From sequence record SRR20825019_1453: a stretch of DNA of 64,000 nucleotides, one strand, 5' to 3'. This document shows positions 6,093-46,100 of the stretch, piece by piece. Position 1 is the first letter of the stretch. Each line of letters begins with the position of its first letter. The position numbers and the translations under genes are program-made. The notes under the pieces are model-generated. The model was given only the letters and a program-made list of their open reading frames with translations. It was not told where the DNA came from and made no database searches.

Positions 6093-6902
6093 ATGAAAAA
6101 AGTAATAAGTTCTTTATTAGTTGCTGCGGCAATGACTTTCGGGTTTGCGGGTCAAACTCTTGCACAAGATGATTCTACCGCTGCTGCGAATCCAGTAACT
6201 GAAGCGGCAACAACTGATGATGGAGCGGAAACGGCTGCAGCTGATGAGGCGCCAGTAGAAGATTTGACGTTTGTTCAAACGCTAAAGCAAAAGTATATTG
6301 AAGGAGATCCATTGTGGATGTCTCCAGTATTGTTGTGTTTGATTATTGGTTTAGCGCTTTCAATTGAGCGTATCGTATACTTAAACCTTTCTACGATCAA
6401 CTCTACAAAATTCTTAGATCAAGTAGAAACAGCGTTGAAAAACGGAGGTGTTGAAGCAGCTAAAGATGTTTGCCGTAACACTCGTGGGCCAATCGCTTCT
6501 ATTTTCTATCAAGGATTAGATCGATCCAATGAAGGAATTGAAATGGTAGAGAAATCTGTCGTAGCGTATGGTGGTGTGCAAATGGGATTGCTTGAAAAAG
6601 GTCTTTCTTGGTTGTCATTGTTTATCGCACTTGCTCCAATGCTTGGGTTCTTGGGAACGGTAATCGGGATGATTTTCGCCTTTGACCAAATTGTTGCGGA
6701 AGGACAAGTTGCTCCAACAACGGTTGCAGGTGGTATTAAAGTATCCCTATTGACAACAGTATTTGGTTTGATCGCAGCGATTATTCTTCAAGTATTTTAC
6801 AACTACATCGTTTCTAAAATAGATAGCCTCGTGAATGAAATGGAGGATGCTTCTATCTCTTTGGTAGATATGATGTTGAAGCACAATGTTGCTAAAGCGT
6901 AA
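6093..6902 (+). CDS. exbB: MotA/TolQ/ExbB proton channel protein
   Basis: APMLGFLGTVIGMI and GGIKVSLLTTVFGL motifs; N-terminal signal peptide as in Bacteroidota ExbB. Confidence 0.9.
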   Translation: MKKVISSLLVAAAMTFGFAGQTLAQDDSTAAANPVTEAATTDDGAETAAADEAPVEDLTFVQTLKQKYIEGDPLWMSPVLLCLIIGLALSIERIVYLNLSTINSTKFLDQVETALKNGGVEAAKDVCRNTRGPIASIFYQGLDRSNEGIEMVEKSVVAYGGVQMGLLEKGLSWLSLFIALAPMLGFLGTVIGMIFAFDQIVAEGQVAPTTVAGGIKVSLLTTVFGLIAAIILQVFYNYIVSKIDSLVNEMEDASISLVDMMLKHNVAKA

Positions 6903-6952
6903 TTAGAAGGAAATTCCTGCTTTAAGGATATCATCTTAAACTTAAAAAAGTT

Positions 6953-7432
6953 ATGGATTCAAAAAAATTAAACCTCGCACTTACCATCTTCAAGTATACC
7001 CTAGGTATTCTTGGTGTGATAGCATGTGCATTGGTAATCGTCGGGCCAAGTGGTGCTGGTGGTGCAGAGAAAGAATTGGTTGAAGAGTTTCGCGAAGGTG
7101 GAAGCATGTCATTCGCAGTTGGATTTACAGGTTTCATAATGTTTGCTTGTATCGCTTTGATTCTCGTTTTCTTCATTGTTCAACTTATCTCGAACCCAAA
7201 GAAAACAATCATGTCAATTGTAGGGATAATTGCAATGCTCGCATTGTACCTGATCTTATTGACTATGGGGTCATCCGATGTTGCGGAGGATCTTAAACTT
7301 CAAGTAGCTGAGCCAGTAAGCCAATCAACTGTTAATTCAACAACAGCTGGACTTTGGACTGCAATTATTGCAATTGGCGTTACAATACTAGCTGCGCTTT
7401 TAGGGCCTGTGTTATCAAGATTTAGAAAATAA
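6953..7432 (+). CDS. Hypothetical membrane protein of the exbB-exbD locus
   Basis: Four hydrophobic segments; lies between exbB and exbD. Confidence 0.75.
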   Translation: MDSKKLNLALTIFKYTLGILGVIACALVIVGPSGAGGAEKELVEEFREGGSMSFAVGFTGFIMFACIALILVFFIVQLISNPKKTIMSIVGIIAMLALYLILLTMGSSDVAEDLKLQVAEPVSQSTVNSTTAGLWTAIIAIGVTILAALLGPVLSRFRK

Positions 7433-7444
7433 TAGTTAGAAAGT

Positions 7445-8200
7445 ATGGCAAAGCGAGAAATACCCGAGATTAATGCTGGTTCGATGGCGGACATCGCTTT
7501 CCTATTGTTGATTTTCTTCCTCGTAACTACAACAATGGATCGTGATAAAGCTTATCCACGTGATATTCCTAAGAAGGTACTGGTTGAAACTGACCCGGTT
7601 CCCGTTGAAGAGAGAAATATATTGGCGATCCGCGCAAACGGTCAAAATCAATTGATGGTCCGCGATGAACTAATGAAAGATCCAAACGAGATTTCAGAGC
7701 GCATTCTAGAGTTCTATAGAACGAATGAGAAATCGAATGATCTAACAAGTCCATTTCCGCTTTATTCTAGAGCAACGAAGGATGATATTATTTCAAATAG
7801 AATCAGAGTGGAGGATGAATTGGAGGAATTGGAAGATACTCCGAACGTTATGCCAGACATGATTCAGTTTAAGGAAGCGCAATTGAAAGAATGGGAAAAG
7901 AAAGAACGTGCAATGAGATTGTATGGTAAACCAGAACTTCCTGAGATTCACTCAAAAGCGCACATTCGAATTGAAGTTCAAGCAAAAACTGGATACGGAT
8001 TGTTCGCAAAAATTCAATCTGAAATCGAAGAAGCGATCTTTGAGTTGAGAAACGATGCCGCGAATGATCTTTTTGGAGAAGGTTACGGAACAATTGTTAC
8101 ACGCTACAACTCTGATAGAGAGAATGTGGATTTGGAAAAAATGTCTTTATTGAAGATTTTGTATCCAGATCGTATCATTGAGGTGAAACCTAAAAACTAG
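7445..8200 (+). CDS. exbD: Biopolymer transporter ExbD/TolR family
   Basis: EINAGSMADIAFLLLIFFLVTT transmembrane motif with the conserved Asp. Confidence 0.9.
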   Translation: MAKREIPEINAGSMADIAFLLLIFFLVTTTMDRDKAYPRDIPKKVLVETDPVPVEERNILAIRANGQNQLMVRDELMKDPNEISERILEFYRTNEKSNDLTSPFPLYSRATKDDIISNRIRVEDELEELEDTPNVMPDMIQFKEAQLKEWEKKERAMRLYGKPELPEIHSKAHIRIEVQAKTGYGLFAKIQSEIEEAIFELRNDAANDLFGEGYGTIVTRYNSDRENVDLEKMSLLKILYPDRIIEVKPKN

Positions 8201-8208
8201 TAGAAGAG

Positions 8209-8727
8209 ATGTCAAAATTTAGAAAAGAAGGAAAAAAGGCAGCACCGGCGGTAAATACCTCTTCGCTTCCTGATATCGTATTCATGCTGTTGTTCTTCTT
8301 CATGGTTGCGACAACAACAAAAGATGCAGATCCATCGGTGAAGGTAACTCAACCAGAAGGAATCAGAGCGCAGGATATGACACCTTACAAACAAAAGTCT
8401 GAAATAGATTTCTTGTACTTGGGTGAGCCTAGAAATCCTGCTCGAAGAGAACAATTTAAGTTTGGTTACGCTTTGTTCTTGGACAATGTAGCACAGCCAG
8501 ATCCAAACGAGTTATACAACTCTAATGCGATCAAAAGCTGGAAACTAGATAAGTTCGATGAAAAGAAAGGAAAAGTTGGATTCAATGCTCAATTGCATGA
8601 AGTTTTTACATGTATTAAAGCAGATGAAAGCGCCCCAACTGGACTCATTTTTGATATCCGTAAGGAATTACAAGATATTGATGCGTTGAAAGTTGCCTAT
8701 GCGGTAAAAGACAACGGAAATTTATAA
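8209..8727 (+). CDS. exbD: Biopolymer transporter ExbD/TolR family (second copy)
   Basis: TSSLPDIVFMLLFFFMVAT and IKAD motifs. Confidence 0.88.
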   Translation: MSKFRKEGKKAAPAVNTSSLPDIVFMLLFFFMVATTTKDADPSVKVTQPEGIRAQDMTPYKQKSEIDFLYLGEPRNPARREQFKFGYALFLDNVAQPDPNELYNSNAIKSWKLDKFDEKKGKVGFNAQLHEVFTCIKADESAPTGLIFDIRKELQDIDALKVAYAVKDNGNL

Positions 8728-8745
8728 TCTAAGTTAAGTTTATTG

Positions 8746-8794
8746 AATCCCGTTCCGTCCCGATCACCATCGGGAATCGGAACGGGATTTTTTT
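8746..8794 (+). terminator. Intrinsic terminator with a nested palindrome
   Basis: 12-bp stem AATCCCGTTCCG/CGGAACGGGATT enclosing TCCCGAT-CACC-ATCGGGA, then a T-tract. Confidence 0.85.
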
Positions 8795-8806
8795 ATTTTA
8801 AATGTT

Positions 8807-9973
8807 ATGCTAAATTTTGAATATTACAATCCAACTAGAATCGTTTTTGGAAAAGATCAGTTGGGAAGGCTGCCAGAATTATTGAATCAATTCGGAGCAT
8901 CAAAAATCTTACTGACATTTGGTGGTGGGAGCATCCAAAAAACAGGTTTATACGATCAAATCATAAAAGTGCTCGCTGATTTTTCTGTCGTTCCGTTTGG
9001 TGGAATCGAAGCGAATCCTGAGTTTTCTACCTTAATGAAGGCAGTGGATGTTGCACGATCTGAGAAAATCGATTTTATTCTTGCAGTTGGAGGCGGATCA
9101 GTGATCGATGGATCGAAGTTCATTAGTGGTGCAATTCATTATTCGGGAGATCCATGGGATGTCTTGGATAAAAAAGAGGGATGTAATTTCGATAAAGCGG
9201 TTCCTTTTGGTTCTGTTCTTACTTTGCCTGCAACGGGTTCTGAGGCAAATTCTGGTGCCGTGGTAAGTAGATCTGAAATGGAGCAGAAAAGAGCCATGGG
9301 AGGACCACAATTTTTTCCAATGTTTTCGCTTTGTGATCCAACCCAAGTAGCAACACTTCCAGAAAGACAAATTGCGAATGGTATCGTTGATGCATACATG
9401 CACACGCTTGAGCAATATTTGACGTATCCTACAGGTAATTTGCTGCAGGAGAGACAAGCGGAAGGCATTTTGTCAACATTGCTTGAGATTGGACCTAAAG
9501 TGATGAAGAATCCATTCGATTATGTGTTAGCTTCGAATCTAATGTGGTGCGCTACTCATGCCTTGAATGGCGTCTTGCGCTGCGGGGTTCCAACCGACTG
9601 GACAACACACATGATTGGACATGAATTAACGGCCTTTTATGGAATCGATCATGCACGAACACTTGCAATTATTGCACCGAGATTGTACGAAAATTGCTTG
9701 GACGAAAAACGAGATAAGCTCGCACAGTATGGCGAACGAGTCCTTGGATTAACGGGAGATAAGGACGATATTGCTAAGAAGGCAATCGTACAGACAGAAC
9801 AATTTTTCCAATCGCTTGGAATAGATACCAAGGTCTCGGATTATACATCTTCGACAGAAAACTTGGCGAAGAGAATCAGAAAAGTATTTGAAGATAGAAA
9901 TTGGATTGGAATGGGAGAAAGAGGTTCCATTACACCAGATCGCGTAGAACAAATTGTGAATGCTGCACTATGA
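8807..9973 (+). CDS. Iron-containing alcohol dehydrogenase (YqhD/BdhA-like, probably NADPH-dependent)
   Basis: GGGS, AVGGGSVIDGSK and TLPATGSE motifs; metal-binding HMIGHE and DHARTLA. Confidence 0.92.
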   Translation: MLNFEYYNPTRIVFGKDQLGRLPELLNQFGASKILLTFGGGSIQKTGLYDQIIKVLADFSVVPFGGIEANPEFSTLMKAVDVARSEKIDFILAVGGGSVIDGSKFISGAIHYSGDPWDVLDKKEGCNFDKAVPFGSVLTLPATGSEANSGAVVSRSEMEQKRAMGGPQFFPMFSLCDPTQVATLPERQIANGIVDAYMHTLEQYLTYPTGNLLQERQAEGILSTLLEIGPKVMKNPFDYVLASNLMWCATHALNGVLRCGVPTDWTTHMIGHELTAFYGIDHARTLAIIAPRLYENCLDEKRDKLAQYGERVLGLTGDKDDIAKKAIVQTEQFFQSLGIDTKVSDYTSSTENLAKRIRKVFEDRNWIGMGERGSITPDRVEQIVNAAL

Positions 9974-10998
9974 CTCAATTGAGTAAATTCTTTCAGTTTA
10001 ATGAAAAGCCGACGGAAGAGATTATTCAATTATTGGAATCCGTAACATTAGGTACCGATGGTGCGCATTATAAGCATCTCGACACAAGAAACCGAGTCAA
10101 CGAGCTGGATAATCCCCTTTTTTTGAGTCTGGAGCGCAATGCTAAAGTTTACGGGAACATTACCTTCTGCCGACGCGGAGAGAACTGGTACATCCGTTAT
10201 TTTGCCTTCGATTCTCTTGTCCAATCGGGAGGAAAGAAAAAATCCAACGCGAAATCAGGTGGATTGCGCAAGGAGCTCAATAACTATTTTGATGCAGTTT
10301 TGTCCTCAAAGAGCAATGAAGGGGTTAATTCTTTCTACGCATATATCGATCCGAGAAATGCAAAAAGTGTTTGGATGAGTGAAAACTTCGGCTTCGAAAA
10401 GATTGGTGAATTGGCAACACAAACGTTTAGTCGAACATCGCCGAGAAATTCAACGCGCGTTTTCAAAACGGATGATTGGAAAGAGATTTCATCGCTCGTA
10501 GAGCGTTTTTTTTCGAAACAACGTTATTTTTTTTCGGATCAGACAAGTAAACCCCCATTTTATGTGTTAAAGGAGGATAATGGAAGGATTCTGGGGTTTG
10601 CAAAGGTCACGATAGCAAATTGGGAAATAAAGCGCTTGCCGGGGAAGTTTGGTGGAGTTTTAGTTCGATTAATTCGTTACCTCCCAATTATCCGCAAGTT
10701 GATTCAACCACAAAATCACTCGTTTGTTGTACCAGAGGGAGTTTATGTTCAAAACAATGACCCAGCGTTACTCCAAGAATTGTTCGAGGGGATTTTATCT
10801 CAGGAAAGGAAGAAACTGATTATTTGGTGGGTTGATGTTAATTCAACGTTGTATTCATCGATTCGGAAGAAAGTCAAATGGGGATTACTGCATAAAATTC
10901 TTGGGGTAAATGCCGTAAATGTGGTTTCGAAATCAGCGAAAAAAATAACGTCCAGCTCAAAAGAAGTATTCTACACGAGCGGATTCGATTTCATTTAA
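9970..10998 (+). CDS. Hypothetical protein, possible GNAT-like fold
   Basis: The ATG at 9970 overlaps the upstream TGA (ATGA). WYIRYFAF and N-x-KS...FGFEKIG resemble acetyltransferase motifs. Confidence 0.6.
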   Translation: MTQLSKFFQFNEKPTEEIIQLLESVTLGTDGAHYKHLDTRNRVNELDNPLFLSLERNAKVYGNITFCRRGENWYIRYFAFDSLVQSGGKKKSNAKSGGLRKELNNYFDAVLSSKSNEGVNSFYAYIDPRNAKSVWMSENFGFEKIGELATQTFSRTSPRNSTRVFKTDDWKEISSLVERFFSKQRYFFSDQTSKPPFYVLKEDNGRILGFAKVTIANWEIKRLPGKFGGVLVRLIRYLPIIRKLIQPQNHSFVVPEGVYVQNNDPALLQELFEGILSQERKKLIIWWVDVNSTLYSSIRKKVKWGLLHKILGVNAVNVVSKSAKKITSSSKEVFYTSGFDFI

Positions 10999-11016
10999 GG
11001 CAGTTCGAACTTTGGG

Positions 11017-11442
11017 TTAATCCAAAATATCCAAGACTTCTGGGTGTACTTCTACCGTGGCATCTACATACAATCGTTGAATAAAGGAATGGAAGAAGAT
11101 ACTATCGATTGCGAAATAGGCTAACATTACACCTAGAAGTGAGTACGTCTCGTTACCTAATCCGCCTTCAAAGACCATAAAACCAAGAAACACTAGAATA
11201 CTTCCAACAAAATGCATAAAAAAGGTACGCGTATGGAGTTCGTTTTTACTTGGTACTTTCTTCAAGTAGAAGTGTTGCAATACCAGAAACAAGACGATGA
11301 ATGGCAAGGAGCATAAAGCGGCCAACACGGTTGTAATTAGACCAATCCCAATTCCAAATAAACTACCGAAAATGAGTCCCGTAAGTAAAGTGAGTACCCA
11401 GCAAATGAAAAAGTGGTAAACTTTTAGTTTTTTGTTATTCAT
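11017..11442 (-). CDS. Hypothetical membrane protein
   Basis: 141-aa ORF with four hydrophobic segments. Confidence 0.7.
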   Translation of the reverse strand: MNNKKLKVYHFFICWVLTLLTGLIFGSLFGIGIGLITTVLAALCSLPFIVLFLVLQHFYLKKVPSKNELHTRTFFMHFVGSILVFLGFMVFEGGLGNETYSLLGVMLAYFAIDSIFFHSFIQRLYVDATVEVHPEVLDILD

Positions 11443-11577
11443 ACAGGAAAACTACAAAAATCCAACGATTCAAAATCCTTAGAAATGTTAAATCAGTTCA
11501 TATCAATGTTATGTCTGCACGGATCACTTTGATTTTAGCAACATTCTATTAAATTCGTAGGGAAAAGTGAAAATTGT

Positions 11578-12141
11578 ATGAAATATCTGATTGTTGGATT
11601 GGGAAATCCAGGTCTTCAGTACGAGAATACCAGGCACAATATTGGATTTAAGGTTGTCGAACATTTTGTAAAAGAACGAGCAGGAACTTTTTCTTCTGAT
11701 AAGCTTGCGGATGTATCAACGGTGAAGTTTAAAGGGCGGCAGATTGTTGTCATTAAACCAACAACTTACATGAATTTGTCTGGAAAAGCAGTCAATTATT
11801 GGATGCAAAAGGAAAAAATTTCCAGAGAGAATATACTTGTGATTACGGATGATATCGCACTTCCATTTGGTAAATTAAGAATGAAAGGCAAAGGCTCCGA
11901 TGGTGGACATAATGGTTTGAAAGATATTCATGCTACACTTGGAACGGTTGAATATACGCGACTTCGTTTCGGAGTTGGGAGTGAATTCAACCCTGGGCGC
12001 CAGTCAGACTATGTACTCGGCGAGTGGTCAAAGGAAGAAAATGACGAGCTCCAGGAAAGAACCGAAACAGCGAGTGAATTTATTAAGAGTTATGTTTCAG
12101 TGGGGCTGGAGTTAACGATGACAAACTGGAATAATCGATAA
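11578..12141 (+). CDS. pth: Peptidyl-tRNA hydrolase
   Basis: LIVGLGNPG, TRHNIGF, KPTTYMNLSG and GGHNGLK motifs. Confidence 0.97.
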   Translation: MKYLIVGLGNPGLQYENTRHNIGFKVVEHFVKERAGTFSSDKLADVSTVKFKGRQIVVIKPTTYMNLSGKAVNYWMQKEKISRENILVITDDIALPFGKLRMKGKGSDGGHNGLKDIHATLGTVEYTRLRFGVGSEFNPGRQSDYVLGEWSKEENDELQERTETASEFIKSYVSVGLELTMTNWNNR

Positions 12142-12418
12142 GGGTCAAATAACGATTTATTTTCTCGCACGAATTATTCGCCGTTTTGTTTTTCTGGAAA
12201 TTCATTTATCTCAGACTTGATGTGTGTCTTTTATTGTAACTTAATGTGATTTCTGATCCTAGACTAACATTAAATGTTTTACTGCTAACACGTTGCCGCA
12301 CCAAAAATGTTTAAGGTTACCAGTTTATGAAAGATACGATCGTTCTACGGTCGAAATTGGATTAATGTCAGATTCTTTTTAGAGTTGAATGTGTTCAGAT
12401 CATAGTTAAAAAGAGTAA

Positions 12419-12496
12419 ACGCTATCATGATTAGTGAAGTGCGGAAAATACCATTTTAGGATGCGCTAAACACCCTTTCTCAATTCGCTAAATACC
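12419..12496 (+). promoter_or_regulatory. Direct repeats phased at 22 bp upstream of the 12573 operon
   Basis: GCGGAAAATACC (12441), GCGCTAAACACC (12463), TCGCTAAATACC (12485), plus a partial ACGCTA (12419). Confidence 0.55.
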
Positions 12497-12572
12497 AGTT
12501 TTTTAGATGTGAATAGATTGGATTATGATTAAATTATATCTTATCTCATAATAATCATTAATTCACACGTAA

Positions 12573-15122
12573 ATGCCTCAATTGACCAAGCCCATTACTA
12601 CAAACTTGTTTAGTTTTAAAACATTTCGCTCACCGGATAAAATTGATTTCAACGAGAAGGAAGAATTCTTTATTCATCATCCTGATGTAACACTGAGTGC
12701 ATTTAATCAATGTCCAATTCCAAGAGAAGGCGAGGGTTCAACTGATCAGCTTGACACATTTATCAATGGCTTCCAACCTGCAAAGAACTATAAAGAAATA
12801 AGAGGCATACACCCTGAATTGTACGACTTCTCATGTTTGCTCATGCAGCAGAAGAGAAACGACACTACGAAAAGAGAACTTAATGCAGAACTGCCTGAAG
12901 CTCTAGATGATGAGGAAATTTTAAAAGTTTGGGATGAATTGTTTGTTCAGACGGCTACTCAAGCATCCAAAACTGTACGGCAGGCTTGTATTCAGTTGAT
13001 AATTGCGCAGCATTATGTACGAAATAATAAAACCCTCGAATTAAGCGATGTATCAAAATTAGTGGTTGTCATCCCAGACGTTGTAATCGCTTGTTTCAAA
13101 CCGTGGAGATATTCCAATTGTGGAGGAGAAATGTTCGGAGTTCAAAATCTTGGTGTCCAAGAGTACAGAAGAGTTGAACAAACGCTTTGCTGCTATGTAC
13201 CTGGTGAAGTTTCTCACATCGAGAATATCATGGCACGAGAATACAAGGAAAAAAGTACACGTAACTTATTACGAACCGAGTACACCACAGAGATTACCAA
13301 TGAAACCGAAATTGAAAATATCAATGATACAACAACAACAGAACGGCATGAGTTGAGTTCTGAGGCTGCAAAGGAATTACAAAAGGACAAATCATTTGAT
13401 ATTAGCGGTTCTGTTACTGTCTCGAAAGACTCAAAAGCATTTGGAAGTATTTCTGCGAATGTAAGTTCGGGTTACAACAGTAGCACTTCCTCTTCTCAAT
13501 CGAATACCGAGGCAAAGAATTATGCCAAGGAAATCACAGAAAGAGCACTTGAAAGAGTGGTTCAAAAAACGACTGAGAAGCGCACCTTCAAAATGATTAG
13601 GGAGTTTGAAGAGAATAACAAACACGGTTTTGATAACACAAAAGGTGTTCAGCACGTTACGGGAGTTTACCGTTGGGTCGACAAAGTGTATGATAATGAA
13701 CTCGTCAACTACGGCAGACGTTTGTTGTTTGAAATCAGTGTGCCGAGTCCAGCTGAGTTTTACAAAAAAGCAATGGCATGGCAGTCGAAAACAGCGGAAT
13801 CAGCTGCTGCTGTGCTTACACCTCCTAAAACATTGGCAAATTTTGGTTTAAACTCTTCATCTGATATAAAGAATGATATTATCACTGCTGCAAACCAAGA
13901 ATACGGTACATCAATAGAAACATATACTGCTGAAGTCCGATATCAGGATGTTAGTTTTGGCGCTGAAACCAATCATTATCATGCAACGAAAACAGATGTT
14001 CGAAGTGCCATTTCAATTGAACCAGGTTTTGTGGCAGATAGAATAGATGGTATTGGAAGTTTTCAACATAACGGAAGTGGCAACACCAAAGCCTATTTGA
14101 GAATAAACATTGCGAATGCACAAGTCTATCGCGGAGATTACCAATCAGGTTCTAAGCAAACGGATAATTTTAATATCAACATTGACCTCTCTCCAAATGT
14201 TGTGGGATCTGCCTCGTTCTCTATTTCATACAGAAAGGTCTATAATTACAGCGGTTCATTTAAGGTGAAACTGATTTCCGATCCTGTCTTATACACCGAA
14301 TGGCAAGAAGAAACATTCTTAGCTTTACAAGCCGCTTATCAAGATAAATTAGATGCGTACAACGACGAATTAGCACTCCAGCAAGCAGCACAACAAGCCG
14401 AAGCAGATCAGCAGGAAAATGATAACTACAGTAATCATGGGATGAATCGTTTGATTGAAGAGCGCGAATTGAAACGCTTGTGCATTGAAATGATGAGCAA
14501 GCCTTATTGCTACGACATGGGGAAAAGTTTCAACAAATGCAAAACGTATGCTTGCAGTTCAGATTGTGGCGAAGTTGAAAACCAAGTAACCGAAGTTATT
14601 CAAAACAGAGAATTGGAAAAATACGCTGAGTTTATCAAGTTCTTCGAAACGGCGTTCCATTGGGAGATCTTTAGCTATGTTTTCTATCCGTATTACTATG
14701 GCGCAAAATGCAATTGGTCCGAATTATTGCAAACCAAAAATGACGATCCAATTTTTGAAGCATTCTTGCAAAGTGGAATGGCAAAACTCCTAGTTCCTGT
14801 TCGCCCACAATTTGAAAAAGCAGTAATGTGGTACATTGAAACGGGTGAAATTTACACTGACGAAAACCTTGTTCCCGAAATTGAAGATGATCGTTATTTG
14901 TCATTGCTGAAAGAATTGCAAAATCAAGAAGATATCAGAGTTGAAGGAAAGTGGAAAACACGTGTGCCTTCTGCCCTTACGATTATTCAAGCGAAATCAA
15001 CGTATTTGGAAGATGCAAAAGGCTTACCTTGTTGTGATGATGAATCTGAAGCTTTTGGAAGTGATGGACGTTTGTTGGAGAATTTAGCAACTGAGACTGA
15101 CCCAGTAACTCAACCTGAATGA
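12573..15122 (+). CDS. Large hypothetical protein; possible pore-forming/translocon component
   Basis: 849-aa ORF with no signal peptide or T9SS CTD. It has a Ser/Thr-rich alternating segment (aa ~273-312), a coiled-coil-like LQAAYQDKLDAYNDELALQQ stretch and many Cys. The gene is secure; the function is inferred. Confidence 0.6.
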   Translation: MPQLTKPITTNLFSFKTFRSPDKIDFNEKEEFFIHHPDVTLSAFNQCPIPREGEGSTDQLDTFINGFQPAKNYKEIRGIHPELYDFSCLLMQQKRNDTTKRELNAELPEALDDEEILKVWDELFVQTATQASKTVRQACIQLIIAQHYVRNNKTLELSDVSKLVVVIPDVVIACFKPWRYSNCGGEMFGVQNLGVQEYRRVEQTLCCYVPGEVSHIENIMAREYKEKSTRNLLRTEYTTEITNETEIENINDTTTTERHELSSEAAKELQKDKSFDISGSVTVSKDSKAFGSISANVSSGYNSSTSSSQSNTEAKNYAKEITERALERVVQKTTEKRTFKMIREFEENNKHGFDNTKGVQHVTGVYRWVDKVYDNELVNYGRRLLFEISVPSPAEFYKKAMAWQSKTAESAAAVLTPPKTLANFGLNSSSDIKNDIITAANQEYGTSIETYTAEVRYQDVSFGAETNHYHATKTDVRSAISIEPGFVADRIDGIGSFQHNGSGNTKAYLRINIANAQVYRGDYQSGSKQTDNFNINIDLSPNVVGSASFSISYRKVYNYSGSFKVKLISDPVLYTEWQEETFLALQAAYQDKLDAYNDELALQQAAQQAEADQQENDNYSNHGMNRLIEERELKRLCIEMMSKPYCYDMGKSFNKCKTYACSSDCGEVENQVTEVIQNRELEKYAEFIKFFETAFHWEIFSYVFYPYYYGAKCNWSELLQTKNDDPIFEAFLQSGMAKLLVPVRPQFEKAVMWYIETGEIYTDENLVPEIEDDRYLSLLKELQNQEDIRVEGKWKTRVPSALTIIQAKSTYLEDAKGLPCCDDESEAFGSDGRLLENLATETDPVTQPE

Positions 15123-16276
15123 TTATGGGAAAGAGTATTTTTGAATTAACAGATAAAACAGGTTATAGCAGCCGATGGGAAGAGGATTGGGAGAAAACTG
15201 AGTTAAAAAGTAATAATTCTTCCAAAGAATCCGCTGCATCTGGTTCAACCAAAGTAGTAATTTTAACGGAAGAAAGAGTCTTTGCAGTAAAAACCGATAT
15301 TCTGCTAAGGTTTAAATTTTATGGTCCAGATAGCTGGTATAACACTCCCGATTCTACTGTTGATTTAACGTCTTCAGACTCTACAGTTGATATTAAGTCC
15401 CCAGCAAAGTGGACAGTTGAAAATGGATGGGTATTTCTTGCTGAAATATCTAAGGATGAACCAGCCAAGGTAAAATTATATATAGCAATTGATGGAATCC
15501 GCAAGCACACTTTTGATGTTGAGTTTAAAAAATCTAAAGATGTGTTTACATTAACCGAAATAGATCGATTAACCGGTGAGTACAGCTATGTTGCTCAGTT
15601 TAATAATTTAGATGAACCGCCTGTTGAATATGAAGGAAACTATTGTATGCAGGGAGCTGATCGCGCAATTGGGAAGCTACTGAATAACTACTCAGATTTT
15701 TATTCTGTCGAGCACGGAACTCATAAGGTTACAAACTCCATTGATTTTAGTGCTGGAACAGGAAACACTTATCAAAGAGCTGGAACCATGAACTCCAAAG
15801 GATTTATACATTCTTCCTACGCGATTGATAATAAATATTGGAACGTCGATCACAACGAAAGAGAGAAAATAAGCTCTAAATATCCTCCATATTCAAATGC
15901 TCGGACATATGCTATTTCTAAAATGTATGACATAGTGTGGGTATCCAAATCTAATGGAACTAACTTCTATCTTTGGTTAAAAAGTAAATGCGATAACACT
16001 GAACCTGGTTATCATGTATACTATCTATCTATTGTGGATGGATTTCATACACAGGTTTTAGTCATTAATAATTCCGATAGAAATAATCCTAAGTATGAAA
16101 TTTGGGATGACCATGGAATTACTTCATCAAAAGGCAAATTGAAGGATATTCCTGAAGGTATAAATATACAAACAAGTTCAATGTTTACCTCTTCATGTTT
16201 GATTCGATTAAAAAATAATACCTCAGATAAATGGGATAGTCAAAAGCTTAAAGTATGGAAAATCAAAAAAAAATAA
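15119..16276 (+). CDS. Hypothetical protein; candidate papain-like (Cys-His-Asp) effector
   Basis: ATGA overlap with the upstream stop. NYC(176)MQGA, GFH(310)TQVLVI and YEIWD(330)DHG motifs; no signal peptide. Confidence 0.55.
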   Translation: MIMGKSIFELTDKTGYSSRWEEDWEKTELKSNNSSKESAASGSTKVVILTEERVFAVKTDILLRFKFYGPDSWYNTPDSTVDLTSSDSTVDIKSPAKWTVENGWVFLAEISKDEPAKVKLYIAIDGIRKHTFDVEFKKSKDVFTLTEIDRLTGEYSYVAQFNNLDEPPVEYEGNYCMQGADRAIGKLLNNYSDFYSVEHGTHKVTNSIDFSAGTGNTYQRAGTMNSKGFIHSSYAIDNKYWNVDHNEREKISSKYPPYSNARTYAISKMYDIVWVSKSNGTNFYLWLKSKCDNTEPGYHVYYLSIVDGFHTQVLVINNSDRNNPKYEIWDDHGITSSKGKLKDIPEGINIQTSSMFTSSCLIRLKNNTSDKWDSQKLKVWKIKKK

Positions 16277-16977
16277 TTGGTTTTTTACTCATCATTTTAT
16301 TTTTAATGAGTTGTTCTAATGAGCCTACTAGGAAAAAGGATAAATCTTCTGTGGATAATAAAAACTCGTCCTTTTCTATAGAACGATATTTGGGTAGAAT
16401 TAAAAACAAAGACTCAAAACGAATTTTTGAAGTTCGATCCATAATCGCACCCGATTCAAAAGTTAATGGATATTTCTCTATCGAGGACAATGTTGCACAA
16501 TTTACCCATTTGATTAACCCATCTGGAGACACACTCAAAGTTCATGAGACAATTGACTCTCTTACTTTCAGGGTTGTTGGTCTATCCGCTGAAGAAAAAC
16601 GGAAAATTAGAAACCCCTATTTCTTTGATGGAAGAATGCGCTGTTACTATTACGATAAAACCAATTTCTACGCGTATCTTGACTTAGACTCCTCCGAATT
16701 CCGTCTACTCGGCAAAAAGAGTGAAGCAGAATTACTTGGAGGGCATTTTGTCCGTGTCGGGAACCAAATTTTTGTTCAGGGGGTTCCAATTGATTCAGCA
16801 GATATTAGCACATTTCACACAATGGAAGTTTTTTGGATGGAGAAGACTGAATGGTCTCGAACAATTGGACTAGATAATAACCATATTTACGTCTCAGAAA
16901 AAATCTTGACCAAAGAACGATTTGACAAATTGATTGCTCCAAATGACTCTTTAAGGAAAATCTACTTTCCAAAATAG
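16255..16977 (+). CDS. Lipoprotein with DKNYY-like C-terminal repeats; candidate immunity protein
   Basis: Lipobox FLMSC; YYDKTNFY, IDSADISTF and GLDNNHIY segments; overlaps the upstream gene by 22 bp. Confidence 0.6.
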   Translation: MENQKKIIGFLLIILFLMSCSNEPTRKKDKSSVDNKNSSFSIERYLGRIKNKDSKRIFEVRSIIAPDSKVNGYFSIEDNVAQFTHLINPSGDTLKVHETIDSLTFRVVGLSAEEKRKIRNPYFFDGRMRCYYYDKTNFYAYLDLDSSEFRLLGKKSEAELLGGHFVRVGNQIFVQGVPIDSADISTFHTMEVFWMEKTEWSRTIGLDNNHIYVSEKILTKERFDKLIAPNDSLRKIYFPK

Positions 16978-17110
16978 GTTGGCCGAACTAAAAAACTGAA
17001 TTAGATGAAACTTATATTCTTTCTCATGTCGGATATAGTTCTCCCATTTTGTAGGATAGCTTTTGTCAAAAATAAGATGATTAGGATACACTTTTCATTG
17101 ATTCAAAACA

Positions 17111-17295
17111 TTCTTGTTCGATCAATCGCAAAACGTGTTGACTGACAAATTATTCATGTTAGGGCAATCGTAGCCCTTGTTAACTGACAAAATATTCCTG
17201 TTGGAGCGATCATAACGATTGTAAAGCCAATCAAAGTTCATATAAGGGCAGTCGTAACATTTGTAATGTCAATCTACTTTTATGTTAAGTCAACT
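17111..17295. repeat. Degenerate tandem repeat, 42-bp unit (21-bp sub-period), about 4.4 copies
   Basis: Units start at 17111, 17153, 17195, 17237 and 17279 (TTCTTGTT, TTCATGTT, TTCCTGTT, TTCATATA, TTTATGTT). Confidence 0.75.
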
Positions 17296-21924: not shown

Positions 21925-22917
21925 ATGAAAACGAAAAGAACATCACTCAATGATATTGCTAAGGCACTTAACGTGTCAAAAGCGACCGTATCTTTTGTAC
22001 TAAATGACAAGGGTGATCAGTTCAATATCAGCAAGGAGAAACAGCGACTGATTAAGGAAAAAGCTAAGGAGTTATTGTACGTTCCTAATTTTTTCGCGAA
22101 GAGCTTGCGTCAAGGCGAAACTAATACGATTGGTTTAGTCCTTCCTGACATATCCAATGCGTTTTACGCCGAACTTTCTAAAACAATTCAAGAGAAATTG
22201 TATGCGGAAGGGTACAGCACTTTTATCGTGAACACAAACGATAATGAGGAAGTTGAGAAAATATTGATGAATGAGCTTATTCAACGAAGTATCGACGGAA
22301 TGATTATCGCTCCAAGTAATAACATTAACGAGTTAATTCCTATTCTTCATTCAACTCACATTCCTGTTGTTTTTGCTGATCGTCCGGGAGATGAAAATGC
22401 AGATTTTGTTGGTGTAGACAATAAGAAGGAAACAAGTTTACTCGTAGGGAAATTTTCTATTCAACCCAAGAAGTTGGCAGTTTTAGCACCTATTAAAAAC
22501 TCGGTAATCACCATTTTGAAACGCATTGAAGGAACTCAAATGGCGTGCGCTGAAGCTGGAATTCCTTTCTCTCAAGTAAATTTATCTGATAACGAAGACG
22601 AATTTGTCAAATTACTGAAAAAGGAAATCGACAATGGTGTAGATTCATTCATTGCCCTGAACAATCAATGTACATTAAGTGCATTGGCTGGGTTCAGAAA
22701 GCTTGGACTTCAACTTCCAAAAGATGTTCGTTTAATTTCATTTGATGATAGCTTAGCGTTCGAATACATGTATCCGCCAGTTTCTGCGCTCAGACAACCT
22801 GTAAACGATATTGGATTGAAGTCTGTAGCTCGTTTGTACGAACGAATCAAGGAAACCAAAGATCCAGGGAAACACTTTATGTTGGATTGTACATTTATCG
22901 CTAGAGAAACGCACTAA
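21925..22917 (+). CDS. LacI family transcriptional regulator
   Basis: SLNDIAKALNVSKATVSFVLN HTH; YVPNFFAKSL hinge; ISFDD. Confidence 0.93.
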   Translation: MKTKRTSLNDIAKALNVSKATVSFVLNDKGDQFNISKEKQRLIKEKAKELLYVPNFFAKSLRQGETNTIGLVLPDISNAFYAELSKTIQEKLYAEGYSTFIVNTNDNEEVEKILMNELIQRSIDGMIIAPSNNINELIPILHSTHIPVVFADRPGDENADFVGVDNKKETSLLVGKFSIQPKKLAVLAPIKNSVITILKRIEGTQMACAEAGIPFSQVNLSDNEDEFVKLLKKEIDNGVDSFIALNNQCTLSALAGFRKLGLQLPKDVRLISFDDSLAFEYMYPPVSALRQPVNDIGLKSVARLYERIKETKDPGKHFMLDCTFIARETH

Positions 22918-24719
22918 TTGCCTGAAACCATAAATCTTTTCGTTTCCATATTGCCTTTTGCACTCGTAAATCGAGCAATGTAAACACCTGAAGACAAGAA
23001 CGCGATTCGTAAACTTCTGTCGGAAATCAATTCCTCGGATTCATATACAACTTGCCCCATTTGGTTATACAAACTGAAAGATGAAGCCTCAGTTAATTCG
23101 GCATGGATTAAATCCTGAGTAACGCTAAAAGAAGAAATTAAAGATGTTTCAGAAGAACATATTTTTCCTTTGATTAACTCAGATGTCTCGAACGACCCAT
23201 CGAAATCGATAGCTCTAATTCGATAATAGCTGTCACTTTCCATAACGACATTTAGTGAATAAGCATTTGTTTCGTCCGATGTTCCAACGGCTTTTACCTC
23301 GCCAATTGGGTAGAAAGTAACTCCGTCAGCTGTTTTTTCTACAACGAAGTAGTCCAAATTTCTCTCTGATAATGTTTCCCATTGGAAGACTTGATTTTCT
23401 CCTTCGCAATTTGCTTCGAAGCGCGACATTTCGGTTGGAAGAATAATAACCGTTTCAGGACAAAAATATTGTTGGTTATTCAACGCTCCTGTGGATGCTG
23501 TTGCTCCCCAATAAACTAGACTGTTGCCTCCAAAAACATTCGTTACAAAATCATAACTACATGTCAAACGAAGCGCTCCATTAAAGTAAACGCTCAATTG
23601 CTGCAACGGTGCGTTCCATTGGATCATAACAGGATATGTATTTCCGTCATCTATGTTTGCTCCATTTGGTTTAGCTGTCACAGGTCCACAAAAGGGAGTT
23701 CCGTTGGCATGATCACCGTCAATTTCAATGGCGATGTGATCTGCGAGCATATCATAAACGTGTATAGGGAAATCATTATCGTAGGTATCAAACTCGATTG
23801 AAACAGCATTCGAAATACCTCCAGCACCCATGTGCTTCCCATTGTCTCCACAGGCAGTTGATGAACTGGATTGAAAGGTAAATGTTGAACCATCTGCTCC
23901 TAAAACAGATGCTCCAAAATAATATTCTAAAGACAAAGAAAACGAGCTTGCAAAATCAATTTGTTTTCCGCTCCAGGCACATCCGCCCTGACTGTTTTTT
24001 GCCGAAGTTAATTCAATGCAATCACGACCTGAAACATTGATATCGGTAGCAGTTCCGTTGAGTGTCCAACATCCGCCGATATATGCCGGAAGCGTAGCGC
24101 TTTGAATAGTAGATGTCCCGCATGCGGATGTGTATCGAATTGAATACGTTGCTCCATCAACACCATTGGTAATATTTCCTGTGGTTGTATTCAATACAGA
24201 ACCATCACTAGGGTTAGATGGATACCAAGAAAATGTTCCACCTGGTGTACCTGTAATGGTTGTAATTACTCCGTTACAAACTGCATCCATATAGAAAGTA
24301 GGTGAGGTTTGTCCTCCACGACGGTATGCCATAGTCCCTTGGTAAGATCCAGAGGTTCCACAACCCGCATCTGTAATTAAAACGCGAATTGTTCCCGTGA
24401 GATTTGCAGTCCATGAGATTTGAGAACATCCCGATGAATACCCTGCAAAAGCTAGTTGGGAAGTGCCATTTGAATTAAGGATGGTGATTTCTGGATAAAG
24501 ATTTCCACTAGAACCTCCATTTGAGCAGAAAGTAAAATCATACGTTCTACCGCATTGAACATTAATTGTGTAGTAGCGACCGTCTCTAACGGACTGAGTT
24601 TGGAAATTGCTTGAAGGGTAGAGATTTCCGTAGGAACTTCCACCGGTGCATGCGTTCGAAAAATTGGAAATAATTAGGGTAATCCAAATAATGGAAAGGC
24701 TTTTCAGGAGAGTGTGCAT
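22914..24719 (-). CDS. T9SS-secreted protein with a legume (L-type) lectin domain
   Basis: Signal peptide; GADGSTF, SIEFDTY, DHIAI and YWGATASTG lectin motifs; ILPTEMSRF linker and a CTD (LYNQMGQ...GVYIARF). Confidence 0.85.
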   Translation of the reverse strand: MHTLLKSLSIIWITLIISNFSNACTGGSSYGNLYPSSNFQTQSVRDGRYYTINVQCGRTYDFTFCSNGGSSGNLYPEITILNSNGTSQLAFAGYSSGCSQISWTANLTGTIRVLITDAGCGTSGSYQGTMAYRRGGQTSPTFYMDAVCNGVITTITGTPGGTFSWYPSNPSDGSVLNTTTGNITNGVDGATYSIRYTSACGTSTIQSATLPAYIGGCWTLNGTATDINVSGRDCIELTSAKNSQGGCAWSGKQIDFASSFSLSLEYYFGASVLGADGSTFTFQSSSSTACGDNGKHMGAGGISNAVSIEFDTYDNDFPIHVYDMLADHIAIEIDGDHANGTPFCGPVTAKPNGANIDDGNTYPVMIQWNAPLQQLSVYFNGALRLTCSYDFVTNVFGGNSLVYWGATASTGALNNQQYFCPETVIILPTEMSRFEANCEGENQVFQWETLSERNLDYFVVEKTADGVTFYPIGEVKAVGTSDETNAYSLNVVMESDSYYRIRAIDFDGSFETSELIKGKICSSETSLISSFSVTQDLIHAELTEASSFSLYNQMGQVVYESEELISDRSLRIAFLSSGVYIARFTSAKGNMETKRFMVSGN

Positions 24720-43064: not shown

Positions 43065-43195
43065 GATGCAAAATTAGACTATTTATTTCTGACGCTGAGA
43101 AATTTAACTTCTTTTTGAATATTTATAACTCAAGAGAGATCTTTCTGTTACACTGAACACGATTTTTCTCCTTTGAACGTTGTACTTTCGTGAAG

Positions 43196-46100
43196 ATGTC
43201 TTGGCTTCGGCGATTTTTGTTGATGATTCTACTATTGATCATTCCTTATTTTGGGATGAGTCAACTTTCGAACTTGAGAGAGAAAACCGTCGCGTGGAAC
43301 GATACGATTCAGCTCGATACCTTGACGATTTACCCAAATTCATTTGAGATTTCTTGTGGCAATGTGGTGATGGATGCGGCCAGTTACAAGCTCGATTACG
43401 CCAGAGCACGTCTGCTTTTACTCGAAAAATGCACGGATTCGATAAATGTGCGCTATCGAGTTTTACCGATGGATTTGTCGCACAAGTACTTTTTACGCGA
43501 CACTTCGCTAATTTACACAAGAGATAAGGGAATCCGAGATCGTTTTTTAATTGCTGGAGGAACCCAAACTACGGATATCTTCGGTGGAACGGGACTTACT
43601 AAATCTGGTAGTATTTCGCGAGGAATCTCGTTTGGAAATAATCAAGACTTGGGTGTAAACTCTACGCTAAACCTAGAGCTATCGGGACAAATCGCGCCAA
43701 ACCTAAAGTTACTAGCTTCGGTTTCGGATGATAATTTACCGATTCAACCACAAGGAAACACAAATACTTTACGTGAGTTTGACCAAGTATTTATCCAAGT
43801 TTACAATGATCAGTTGAAGCTAATAGCGGGAGATTTTTGGCTTTATAAACCGTCTGGTTACTTTATGGTGTATAAAAAGCGCGCACAAGGATTAACGGTC
43901 AACTATGCGTGGCAGGCAGATTCGAATCGCGTATGGAAAACCCAAGCGAGTGGAGCATTATCGCGAGGTAAATTTCAGCGACAAATTATCCAGGGAGTGG
44001 AAGGAAATCAAGGTCCATATCGATTACAAGGAGCGCAAAACGAACAGTTCATTATTGTCCTCTCAGGAACTGAACGGGTGTATATTGACGGAAGACTTGT
44101 TGAACGTGGGCAGGAGTTTGATTATGTGATCGACTACAATACTTCAGAAGTAACATTCACTGCTCGAAATCAAATTACCAAGGATTCGAGAATCGTGATT
44201 GAGTTTCAGTATTCTGATCAGAATTACGCGCGTTCTTTGATGCAATCTTCGACAACCTTCGAATCTAAGCGACTGAAATTCTGGATCAATGGTTATTCTG
44301 AACAAGATGCGAAGAATCAAACGCTGCAGCAAGAATTGTCTTTGAGTCAACGGAAACGACTTTCGGAAATTGGTGATTCAGTGGACTTAGCGAGAATTTC
44401 AAGCATCGATTCAATTGGCTATTTTGAAAATCAGAACCTCTACAAATTAATCGATTCGTTGGGTGTGGACTCCGTTCTTGTACATTCCGTAAATCCTGAT
44501 TCAGCGTTTTATCGGGCAACGTTCCAGTTTGTTGGACAAGGAAAGGGTGATTATGTCTTTAGCAATTTTAACGCGCTTGGAAAAGTATTCAAATGGGTGG
44601 CGCCAGTTGCTGGAATTCCCCAAGGAGATTACGAACCTTCACGATTAATAGTTACTCCACAGCAAAGACAAATGGTGACGTCAGGTGTAGAAATTCGCTT
44701 ATCGAAAGTGCTAAAATTGGAAACGGAATTGGCGTATTCGAAGCTTGATCTAAATACATTTTCACCTTTTGATCGAAAAGATGATAAAAGCTTTGGAGCG
44801 ATTAGTAGGTTGATCGGCGATATTCCATTGTCACGAGATTCTTTACCCAATTGGAAGTTGAGAACAAAAGTAGAGATTGAAGCACGAGACCGGTTCTTTT
44901 CACCGATTGAACAATACCGATCCGTAGAGTTTGATCGCGATTGGAATGTTAGAAATAAAGGATACACGGGAAATCAGGTAGCCTCAGTTCTCGGAACCAA
45001 TTTCATTCACCGAAAATATGGGAATTTGAATCTTGAAGGACAACATTATGTAATTGGTGGCGATTATCAGGGAATGCGTGCTGCAAGTGATGGGAAATGG
45101 AAGCAGAAGGGATTTTCAGCGAGTTGGGATGGAAGTTTTTTGTCCAGTAAAACCGCAGAACTTAATGAGTATTTACGACATCGGGCAGAAATCTCCCAAC
45201 AAGTCGGTTGGTTTAAGTTTGGATACAAAGACGATCACGAGTTAAATAAATTCCGAACAACACTTCTTCAACCTTCGAGTTATCAGTTTTTTGATTACCA
45301 ATTTTTTGTTGCCAATAGTGATTCTATTAAAAATAATTACAAGCTGTTTTACCGCGAACGATATGATCAACGCTCTGATAGCAGCTCACTTGTCAATGTT
45401 GCAAAAGCGACTTCGATTGGTGGTGAAGTGAGTTTCACAGAATGGAAAAATCAACGACTTACCGTTTTGTCGAGTTACCGTGAACTGAAAATTCTGGACA
45501 ATCAATTAATTAATCAAACTCCAGAAAATACATTGTTGGGTCGAATAGAATATGAATTGAGAGCCTTTAAAAGTGCCATAACGGTGAATAATTTTTACGA
45601 AGTTGGATCAGGTCTTGAGTTGAAACGAGAATTTCTCTACGTTAAAGTTAACGACGGTCAGGGAGTGTACACTTGGATAGATTACAACGGAGATGGAATA
45701 AAAGATTTGAATGAATTTGAGATCGCTCAGTTTGTGGACCAAGCGAGTTATATCCGCGTGTTTACGCCAAGTAACGAATACGTTCAAACTTATTCAAATG
45801 AGTTTAATCAGTCTGTTTATTGGAGGCCAGAACGATTGTGGGCGAACAAAAAAGGAGCGTTGGGTGTAGTTGCTCGTTTTTCAGATCAGGCGCGACTTCG
45901 CGTAAACAGAAAAACAAATCTGTTCAATGTAAACGAGGCGTTCAATCCATTTTCTGGCGTCATAGAAGATTCTAACTTGATTGCCACAAATTCAAACATT
46001 AGGAATACGCTCTTTTTTAATCGAACGTCGAGCATTGTTAACGCGGAATATACATTTCAAAATACAGTCGGAAAAACACTCTTGGCGAATGGATTCGATT

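Follow-up and report, generated by a model that had tools for sequence, protein, structure and literature searches.

A three-gene island that probably belongs to an uncharacterised Bacteroidota polymorphic toxin-immunity system with a dedicated partner protein

We analysed a three-gene island at positions 12573..16977 of a 64,000-nt stretch of DNA from sequence record SRR20825019_1453 (one strand; the whole stretch is called the window below). Comparison with relatives gives good support to the island being a genuine member of a polymorphic toxin-immunity system organized around a dedicated partner protein, and we think it probable that this system is a large, uncharacterised one of the Bacteroidota in which the partner specifies the target. 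All three open reading frames (ORFs) lie on the + strand, at the positions given in the original prediction: gene 1 (12573-15122) encodes a soluble, acidic protein of 849 residues, the conserved partner and putative carrier or targeting subunit; gene 2 (15119-16276) encodes a 385-residue cargo or toxin; and gene 3 (16255-16977) encodes a 240-residue lipoprotein that is the putative cognate immunity protein. The genes are real, because gene 1 has full-length homologues, gene 2 has relatives (14 in the first search), and relatives of gene 3 follow relatives of gene 2, as they do in both other accessible loci, L016 and L014 (loci of relatives are labelled L001 and so on, with readable sequence extending 8 kb on each side of the relative). 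The original prediction had read the island as a polymorphic toxin system with a conserved dedicated partner and no named class, and that reading holds; its further proposal, a delivery or pore function for gene 1, we can take no further than inference, the protein having neither a transmembrane segment nor a structural match.

A genome scan found 80 loci with a relative of gene 1, distributed over many Bacteroidota genera, with complete genomes such as Olleya sp. R77988 (NZ_CP138988.1) and a Chitinophagaceae chromosome (OZ241334.1) among the carriers, and simple greedy gene calling, used here together with heuristic calling of signal peptides, placed the gene in 74 of the loci. A same-strand gene comes next after the gene 1 homologue in 66 of the 74 loci, and known C-terminal toxin or cell-wall-hydrolase families are found in 22 of these 66 first-downstream proteins, namely Tox-MPTase4 in seven, EndoU, WHH/Colicin-DNase, deaminases, Het-C, DUF3289, C39-like and GH19 in two each, and Amidase_2 in one, with a few of the 22 domain matches scoring slightly below the curated cut-off. 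SUKH immunity proteins account for another 2/66 and unrelated matches for 3/66. When the cargoes are compared all against all, their N-terminal parts are shared and their C-terminal ends diverge, and in Tenacibaculum pairs a change in the toxin tip is accompanied by one in the next gene, independently of gene 1 and the toxin body (66/87/25/21% for L045/L059 and 63/80/96/98% for L045/L048). The original prediction had proposed tabulating the genes downstream of the homologues of the 849-residue protein, and in that tabulation variable enzymes with a shared N-terminal leader or N-domain do recur, with variable small secreted proteins or lipoproteins following the enzymes in the clade to which the window belongs.

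The genes farther downstream are of the kind expected of immunity. Among 150 further downstream proteins scanned (the 63 genes in second position and 87 of 137 lying farther on), 20 are SUKH-type and four are WHH nuclease ORFs without a toxin body. The median gap between a cargo and the gene that follows it is -4 nt, and several cassettes of cargo and following gene stand behind one gene 1 in L005, L006 and L014. Orphan toxin cassettes or immunity arrays are present in relatives; there are none in the window, where asnS follows gene 3. Gene 3 itself encodes hydrophobic residues 7-19 and then Cys20, in the sequence ...LFLMSC, so that from its signal peptide and lipobox cysteine it looks like a bacterial lipoprotein, as had been claimed for it, and its position makes it a putative cognate immunity protein. 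It has a weak DKNYY match (24.4 bits against a cut-off of 25, which its counterpart in L016 passes with 27.3 bits), and a search of the PDB with it returned noise or compositionally biased helical designs only. A separate observation concerns a conserved ORF of ~166 residues with a partial Endonuclease V match that lies within immunity arrays at L044:8403-8900, at L051:14590-15087 and in seven other loci of the clade with long forms of gene 1 described below; in L044 it comes after a deaminase toxin, suggesting the possibility that it might provide a repair-type protection against deaminase toxins.

The gene 2 protein shows the modular construction of a cargo. It begins with an N-terminal leader of ~20 residues (MGKSIFELTDKTGYSS..., 15125..15184), recognized by a leader hidden Markov model (HMM), which is followed by a shared N-domain (approximately residues 45-145, 15251..15553) that is reused by cargoes with other enzyme domains, and then by a C-terminal domain (approximately residues 150-385, 15566..16273). 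Some relatives of gene 2 match only positions 1-140 of its profile, and in 5 of 12 scanned proteins that share only the first ~140 residues the remainder is instead a GH19, C39-like, polysaccharide deacetylase, Amidase_2 or muramidase domain. The family proper is rare, with 90 clusters in a profile search of 1.84 billion representatives and no member longer than 586 residues. Gene 2 has no match in Pfam, NCBIfam, PADLOC, PHROGs or the PDB (the last by sequence and by profile), none in phage genomes or plasmids, and no profile similarity to the NlpC/P60 protein of the window or to a C39-like cargo. Cys176, His299 and His310 are among 36 columns that are invariant in 16 relatives, and because of these residues, the domains of its siblings and its lipoprotein partner, we take gene 2 to be a putative Cys/His hydrolase that is most likely directed at the cell wall.

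Cargoes of both clades of the family begin with a motif of ~20 residues of the type SIFEFADKFGYESPF, and two alternative leader types also exist. A leader HMM built from 21 seed leaders was run on 808,241 residues, comprising the stop-to-stop frames read on both strands in the 80 loci and throughout the window, and it matched 27 ORFs at E<1e-3, six of them non-seeds; all 27 lie on the strand of gene 1, 24 start 3-240 nt past the gene 1 stop codon, and gene 2 is the sole match in the window. Strict leader patterns applied to 1,074 called genes gave 41 matches in 39 loci, all downstream of gene 1 and on the same strand, with two leader-bearing genes in each of two loci; L014 likewise has two leader-bearing cargo genes when inspected by eye.

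The partner protein is better known by its conservation than by any named relationship. Its family comprises at least 1,087 proteins at E<=1e-3 among 8,000 candidates; the 120 homologues listed are 39-91% identical to gene 1, 116 of them are 800-900 residues long, and every name given to them by a source is "hypothetical protein". Gene 1 has no match in Pfam, NCBIfam, PADLOC or PHROGs, and none in the PDB by single sequence or by profile; PDB searches with a long-form gene 1 and with toxin bodies returned noise or compositionally biased helical designs only, and profile comparison revealed no homology between gene 1 and the toxin bodies. No description of the family was found in the full-text literature, most subscription journals and supplements aside. 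The N-terminal domain (residues 1-150, 12573..13022) bears in its first ~20 residues (12573-12640) a motif of the type LFxFxxxRxP, in which F13, F15, R19 and P21 are near-invariant, and which is common to homologues from Bacteroidota, Bacillus thuringiensis, Streptomyces, Sinorhizobium and a Chryseobacterium plasmid (among them those in L081-L083 and L085). A likeness of this motif to the cargo leader was considered and dropped, the leader HMM not matching gene 1. Conserved core block 1 (residues 186-400, 13128..13772) is the most conserved part of the family, with a mean identity to the window of 0.57-0.91 per 25-residue bin and ~30% identity kept in homologues from other phyla, and conserved core block 2 (residues 576-825, 14298..15047) is also kept across phyla. 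Long forms of the protein have an insert of ~380 residues right after the N-domain and before the core, and some still longer forms have fn3 domains inside the insert. Two of the loci, L011 and L069, come from metagenome-assembled genomes (MAGs) labelled Ignavibacteriae and Planctomycetota; the L011 protein is virtually identical to one in a Flavobacteriales MAG (L015), and mis-binning seems likely.

Between the two core blocks lies a hypervariable, swappable module (residues 426-575, 13848..14297), which is a candidate specificity or receptor-binding domain. Homologues whose conserved blocks are ~90-94% identical to those of the window are only 19-38% identical to it in this module, and of the 463 pairs among 117 short-form proteins whose cores are at least 85% identical, 63% have less than 40% identity in residues 426-575. 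The module is thus an exchangeable cassette between near-identical backbones. About 20 types of it occur in the 117 proteins, and which of them is present does not depend on the type of cargo: cargo of the gene 2 type is found alongside three different module types, and a single module type accompanies eight types of cargo. The long clade has the same pattern, with L049 and L052 sharing 94% identity over the core and 26% over the module. In a crude secondary-structure sketch the variable module is strand-leaning and its flanks are helical. Such hypervariability suggests a targeting role for gene 1, and we prefer a targeting or carrier role to one in the cytoplasm because a hypervariable cassette is expected of a specificity determinant that meets a variable partner outside the cell.

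The cytoplasmic alternative is that gene 1 is an adaptor or loader that passes leader-tagged effectors to a type VI secretion system (T6SS) of the Bacteroidota type, or to another contractile injection system, encoded elsewhere, with genes 2 and 3 forming an ordinary effector-immunity pair. We consider this rather unlikely, though in its favour neither gene 1 nor gene 2 has an export signal, cell-wall effectors with lipoprotein immunity are a classic T6SS pattern, and N-terminal packaging signals are known on the cargo of contractile systems. In addition, a MAG of Aureispira (L018) has a copy of the gene set, and a preprint on ixotrophy, in the part of it available to us, states that an effector degrading peptidoglycan, as yet unidentified, may complement the T6SS of Aureispira. 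Against such an adaptor, no T6SS or contractile-system family was found among the 45 other ORFs of the window or among 21 recurrent neighbour clusters scanned, a hypervariable cassette-like module and fn3 inserts are not obviously needed in the cytoplasm, and the sister clade has its own repressor and a CHAP-holin pair. The scan of the 45 ORFs agrees with the original prediction, which had noted the absence of VgrG, PAAR, Rhs, Hcp, sheath and CdiB genes; it detected none of these and no other contractile-system family.

The sister clade is instructive in other ways. In a tree of 71 gene 1 proteins the forms of ~840 residues, which include that of the window, make up one clade of 24 with a support of 100, nested among forms of ~1,150-1,250 residues. 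Short-clade cargoes are small and follow closely behind gene 1 (median gap 12 nt), and the gene after the cargo encodes a secreted protein or lipoprotein in 15/24 short-clade loci, ten of them with a lipobox, compared with 0/39 long-clade loci, where SUKH-type immunity proteins follow the cargo instead. The long-clade cargoes are 600-900 residues long and have a shared body with nuclease, deaminase or metallopeptidase tips, and strongly hydrophobic segments occur in 23/35 long-clade cargoes of at least 500 residues as against 0/17 short-clade cargoes of less than 500 residues. A division into periplasmic and cytoplasmic targets, each with matching immunity, is what is predicted for toxins aimed at other cells. 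The long clade also has a divergent upstream Peptidase_S24 (LexA/CI-like) gene in 31/43 loci with enough sequence, and at the far end of the array a holin in 22/38 and a CHAP protein in 23/38 loci, the two pairing up; the CHAP protein (~143 residues) and a Phage_holin_4_1 protein (~142 residues) close the arrays in L043, L045, L048, L058 and others (e.g., L044:9201-10071). A repressor combined with a CHAP-holin pair amounts, on this comparison, to a bacteriocin-like logic.

The same CHAP-holin pair could be turned to a different account, in which the island is a self-release device of the holin/endolysin type (type 10 secretion), gene 2 opening the wall of its own cell, gene 1 being the payload and gene 3 a regulator or spanin-like lipoprotein. 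The muramidase, amidase, GH19 and deacetylase domains carried by siblings of gene 2 would suit that function, as would a gene 1 protein without an export signal. We nevertheless regard it as very improbable, as there is no holin in the window or in any of 16 short-clade loci, the cargo and the following gene are swapped jointly as diverse cassettes with several per gene 1 (L005, L006 and L014), and the nucleases and deaminases of the sister clade, with their SUKH immunity, would play no part in self-release.

Relatives of gene 1 extend beyond the Bacteroidota. Its core (approximately residues 190-815) has relatives with 25-35% identity, all annotated as hypothetical, on 15 of 72,556 plasmids, whose hosts are Bacillus thuringiensis, Streptomyces, Tsukamurella, Sinorhizobium/Ensifer, Cupriavidus, a Chryseobacterium and the archaeon Natronorubrum; no relative was found in phage genomes. 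In six annotated plasmid contexts a same-strand gene comes after the homologue, encoding a patatin in Natronorubrum and a hypothetical protein in the other five, and a seventh record, from Cupriavidus, has no annotation there. PDB searches with two downstream proteins from other phyla gave noise or compositionally biased helical designs only. Two of the plasmid loci have peculiarities of their own. In L085 (Chryseobacterium plasmid NZ_CP044508.1, 10218-14497) the ORFs that come after the toxin repeat a 99-residue junction segment with 90% identity and are divergent beyond it; they have the look of orphan toxin cassettes ready to recombine. In L084 (a Natronorubrum bangense plasmid, 6399-11454) the gene 1 homologue is apparently split near its C-terminus, the next ORF, of 71 residues, aligning to the end of other homologues, and a patatin-like phospholipase gene comes after.

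Large sensors with variable modules and exchangeable effectors, such as a nuclease, protease or patatin, are typical of defence systems, and it could be imagined that the island is an intracellular conflict system, anti-phage or abortive-infection in kind, in which gene 1 would do the sensing through a variable recognition module, gene 2 would be the effector and gene 3 an accessory. The patatin gene after the archaeal plasmid homologue and the location of the Bacillus thuringiensis copy among helicase and DUF genes are the contexts that recommend this idea, to which we give next to no probability: the island has no PADLOC match; enzymes directed at peptidoglycan together with partners that are lipoproteins or secreted, or else SUKH arrays with orphan tips, are hallmarks of intercellular toxins; and the membrane-inserting segments are confined to the long-clade cargoes of at least 500 residues, the set that has nuclease, deaminase and metallopeptidase domains.

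The wide occurrence of the core also bears on a broader conjecture, which we offer only tentatively and hold with distinctly less than even confidence, that an unrecognised, secretion-system-independent form of protein delivery between cells has its structural core in the gene 1 family, a single self-sufficient protein loading any cargo that bears the leader and finding its target via the cassette-like module. In such a form of delivery gene 1 might act as an oligomeric translocator or cage, and its core would be common to modules in Bacillus, actinomycetes, rhizobia and a haloarchaeon.

For the toxin-immunity system that we favour, the best-supported mechanism would be one in which the partner protein delivers and aims the toxin. 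Gene 1 would supply a conserved, soluble 849-residue partner made without an export signal, and gene 2 a modular cargo in which a short leader and an N-domain that can be reused precede an exchangeable enzyme at the C-terminus; translational coupling would allow gene 1 and the leader-tagged cargo to be made together and then to associate, while the gene 3 lipoprotein would shield the periplasm of the producer and its kin. The complex would exit the producer, in the sister clade presumably by induced lysis, after which the central module of gene 1 may pick the target cell and the conserved core may carry the cargo to or across the outer membrane of that cell. The sequences themselves establish how the genes are associated in genomes, their modularity, the leader, the neighbours of immunity type and the hypervariable module; binding, release, targeting and toxicity are predicted steps of this scheme.

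Several observations weigh against this interpretation. No recognisable domain is present in 39 of the 66 first-downstream proteins, and in L049 and L052 SUKH immunity genes come immediately after gene 1, no toxin gene separating them. Gene 1 lacks a signal peptide, and neither a transmembrane segment nor an amphipathic or pore-like feature is seen in it; its proposed role is deduced purely from context. Gene 2 is likewise only a predicted toxin and a putative enzyme, and no family could be assigned to it by the searches made. Related gene 1 proteins can differ in the type of leader (A, B or C) that goes with them; co-variation of leader type with any region of gene 1 was looked for and dropped, none being seen. 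Core homologues in monoderm bacteria and an archaeon adjoin unrelated downstream genes, and because such homologues exist the job of the core is not specific to crossing an outer membrane. Finally, the short clade has no S24 gene (0/24) and no holin (0/16), and the window has no S24, CHAP or holin homologue, so that with the repressor and lysis genes missing there the release route in the clade of the window is unexplained.

The closest general comparison is with polymorphic toxin systems, in which, in the portions of PMC3482391 available to us, a constant N-terminal part is combined with exchangeable C-terminal toxin domains, several of those found here being families catalogued in that paper, and an immunity gene, SUKH among them, lies directly downstream, with orphan tips and immunity arrays as in the relatives of the island. 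The same portions of that paper (Zhang et al. 2012, PMC3482391) name as export routes for such toxins the type II, III, V, VI and VII secretion systems (T2SS, T3SS, T5SS, T6SS and T7SS), PVC, TcdB/TcaC, PrsW, MuF and PyocinS, and none of these named routes matches the island. Exchangeable C-terminal domains and a downstream immunity gene that tracks the toxin tip, two features of a polymorphic toxin system, are both present on the evidence of the sequences; as to a trafficking domain, neither genes 1 and 2 nor the toxin bodies of the long clade matched such a family in Pfam, NCBIfam or PHROGs. The island differs from such systems in that its constant element is largely a separate upstream protein of 849 residues, which itself has a polymorphic module, together with a toxin leader of ~20 residues.

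Colicins and S-type pyocins are bacteriocins made of protein, whose receptor-binding and killing modules can be swapped and whose immunity gene lies downstream; they are induced by damage and released by lysis, and in colicins targeting, translocation and killing are accomplished within one polypeptide. The LexA-like repressor and CHAP-holin pair of the sister clade resemble this arrangement, but here the variable module and the toxin are on two proteins, no sequence similarity was found, and the clade of the window has no nearby repressor or lysis gene. In binary AB toxins (anthrax PA with LF/EF, for example) a separate binding and translocating component serves enzymes that share an N-terminal docking region, which is the layout that the original prediction proposed; the island differs in having no sequence homology to such a component, no signal peptide on gene 1 and no pore feature, and its predicted targets are bacteria. 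In the T6SS pairs Tae/Tai and Tge/Tgi the gene of a signal-less cell-wall enzyme overlaps the immunity gene behind it, whose product is a periplasmic protein or lipoprotein, a layout shared by genes 2 and 3, though VgrG, Hcp and PAAR are absent from the 64-kb window, gene 2 matches no known effector family, and an 849-residue partner stands in place of a spike. Encapsulins and contractile systems load unrelated cargo by a short terminal peptide on proteins encoded beside the structural gene, and the leader of the gene 2 type is similarly found on otherwise unrelated cargoes, but no such family was matched and there are no shell, sheath or tube genes nearby. Finally, the umbrella particles of Streptomyces are, in the portions of PMC11062931 and PMC13274773 available to us, an antibacterial complex of a polymorphic toxin with separate, diversified targeting proteins; the division of toxin and diversified targeting between separate proteins is the point of likeness, and the proteins of the island are unrelated to them.

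The junctions within the island are as the original prediction described them. Genes 1 and 2 meet in an ATGA at 15119-15122, and an alternative ATG of gene 2 at 15125, which is the likelier start because homologues begin MGKSIF, would replace the 4-nt overlap with a 2-nt spacer; to judge from the sequence the two genes are tightly coupled whichever start is used. The gene 3 ATG at 16255 and the gene 2 TAA at 16274-16276 create a 22-nt overlap (16255-16276), and an identical -22 overlap of cargo and next gene is found in L016 and L007. The claim that genes 1 and 2 lack a Sec signal and the type IX secretion (T9SS) C-terminal domain (CTD) is upheld as well, neither protein having a hydrophobic N-terminus or a T9SS CTD match; the same library detects a CTD in the first ORF of the window.

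The island lies, as had been said, between pth (11578-12141) and a class II aminoacyl-tRNA synthetase gene (asnS-like, from 17360), which is followed by rpoN; Pfam confirms pth and the synthetase. The flanking gaps had been put at about 430 bp each, which is right for the upstream one (12142..12572, 431 nt); the downstream one is 382 nt, or 430 nt if the synthetase starts at the in-frame ATG 17408. The upstream non-coding gap, which presumably contains the promoter of the island, is one in which no Rfam family was found, sigma-70-type sites were not above shuffled expectation, and alignment with the upstream regions of relatives revealed no conserved element except a short stretch common to L001; promoter, terminator and Rfam scans found no regulatory element. 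A conserved synteny of the island with pth was rejected, pth being near the copy only in Taishania (L007). The gap between gene 3 and the synthetase gene contains, at 17104-17264, a 42-nt unit repeated head to tail in four degenerate copies; the unit has no other copy within the window and no Rfam match. Elsewhere in the window, an ORF of 1,147 residues without a Pfam match (43190-46630) lies beside a 7TMR-DISM/SpoIIE signalling protein and a bacterial alpha-2-macroglobulin of 2,047 residues (48893-55036), and the - strand encodes at 22917-24719 a protein of 601 residues whose beta-barrel domain is of the legume-lectin type, an unusual one for bacteria.

If gene 1 does serve in delivery and targeting, more than 1,000 "hypothetical" Bacteroidota genes would belong to a route outside the numbered secretion systems, in marine, freshwater, soil and rumen organisms, which are the carriers of the family. 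Such a route would have three independently exchangeable parts, the target selector, the toxin and the immunity protein, with the leader tag defining what is cargo; it would bear on competition among gliding and marine flavobacteria, and it would explain many orphan toxin-immunity pairs in Bacteroidota. Even if gene 1 were an adaptor, it would be the missing partner, and the leader the loading signal, for a large set of effectors.

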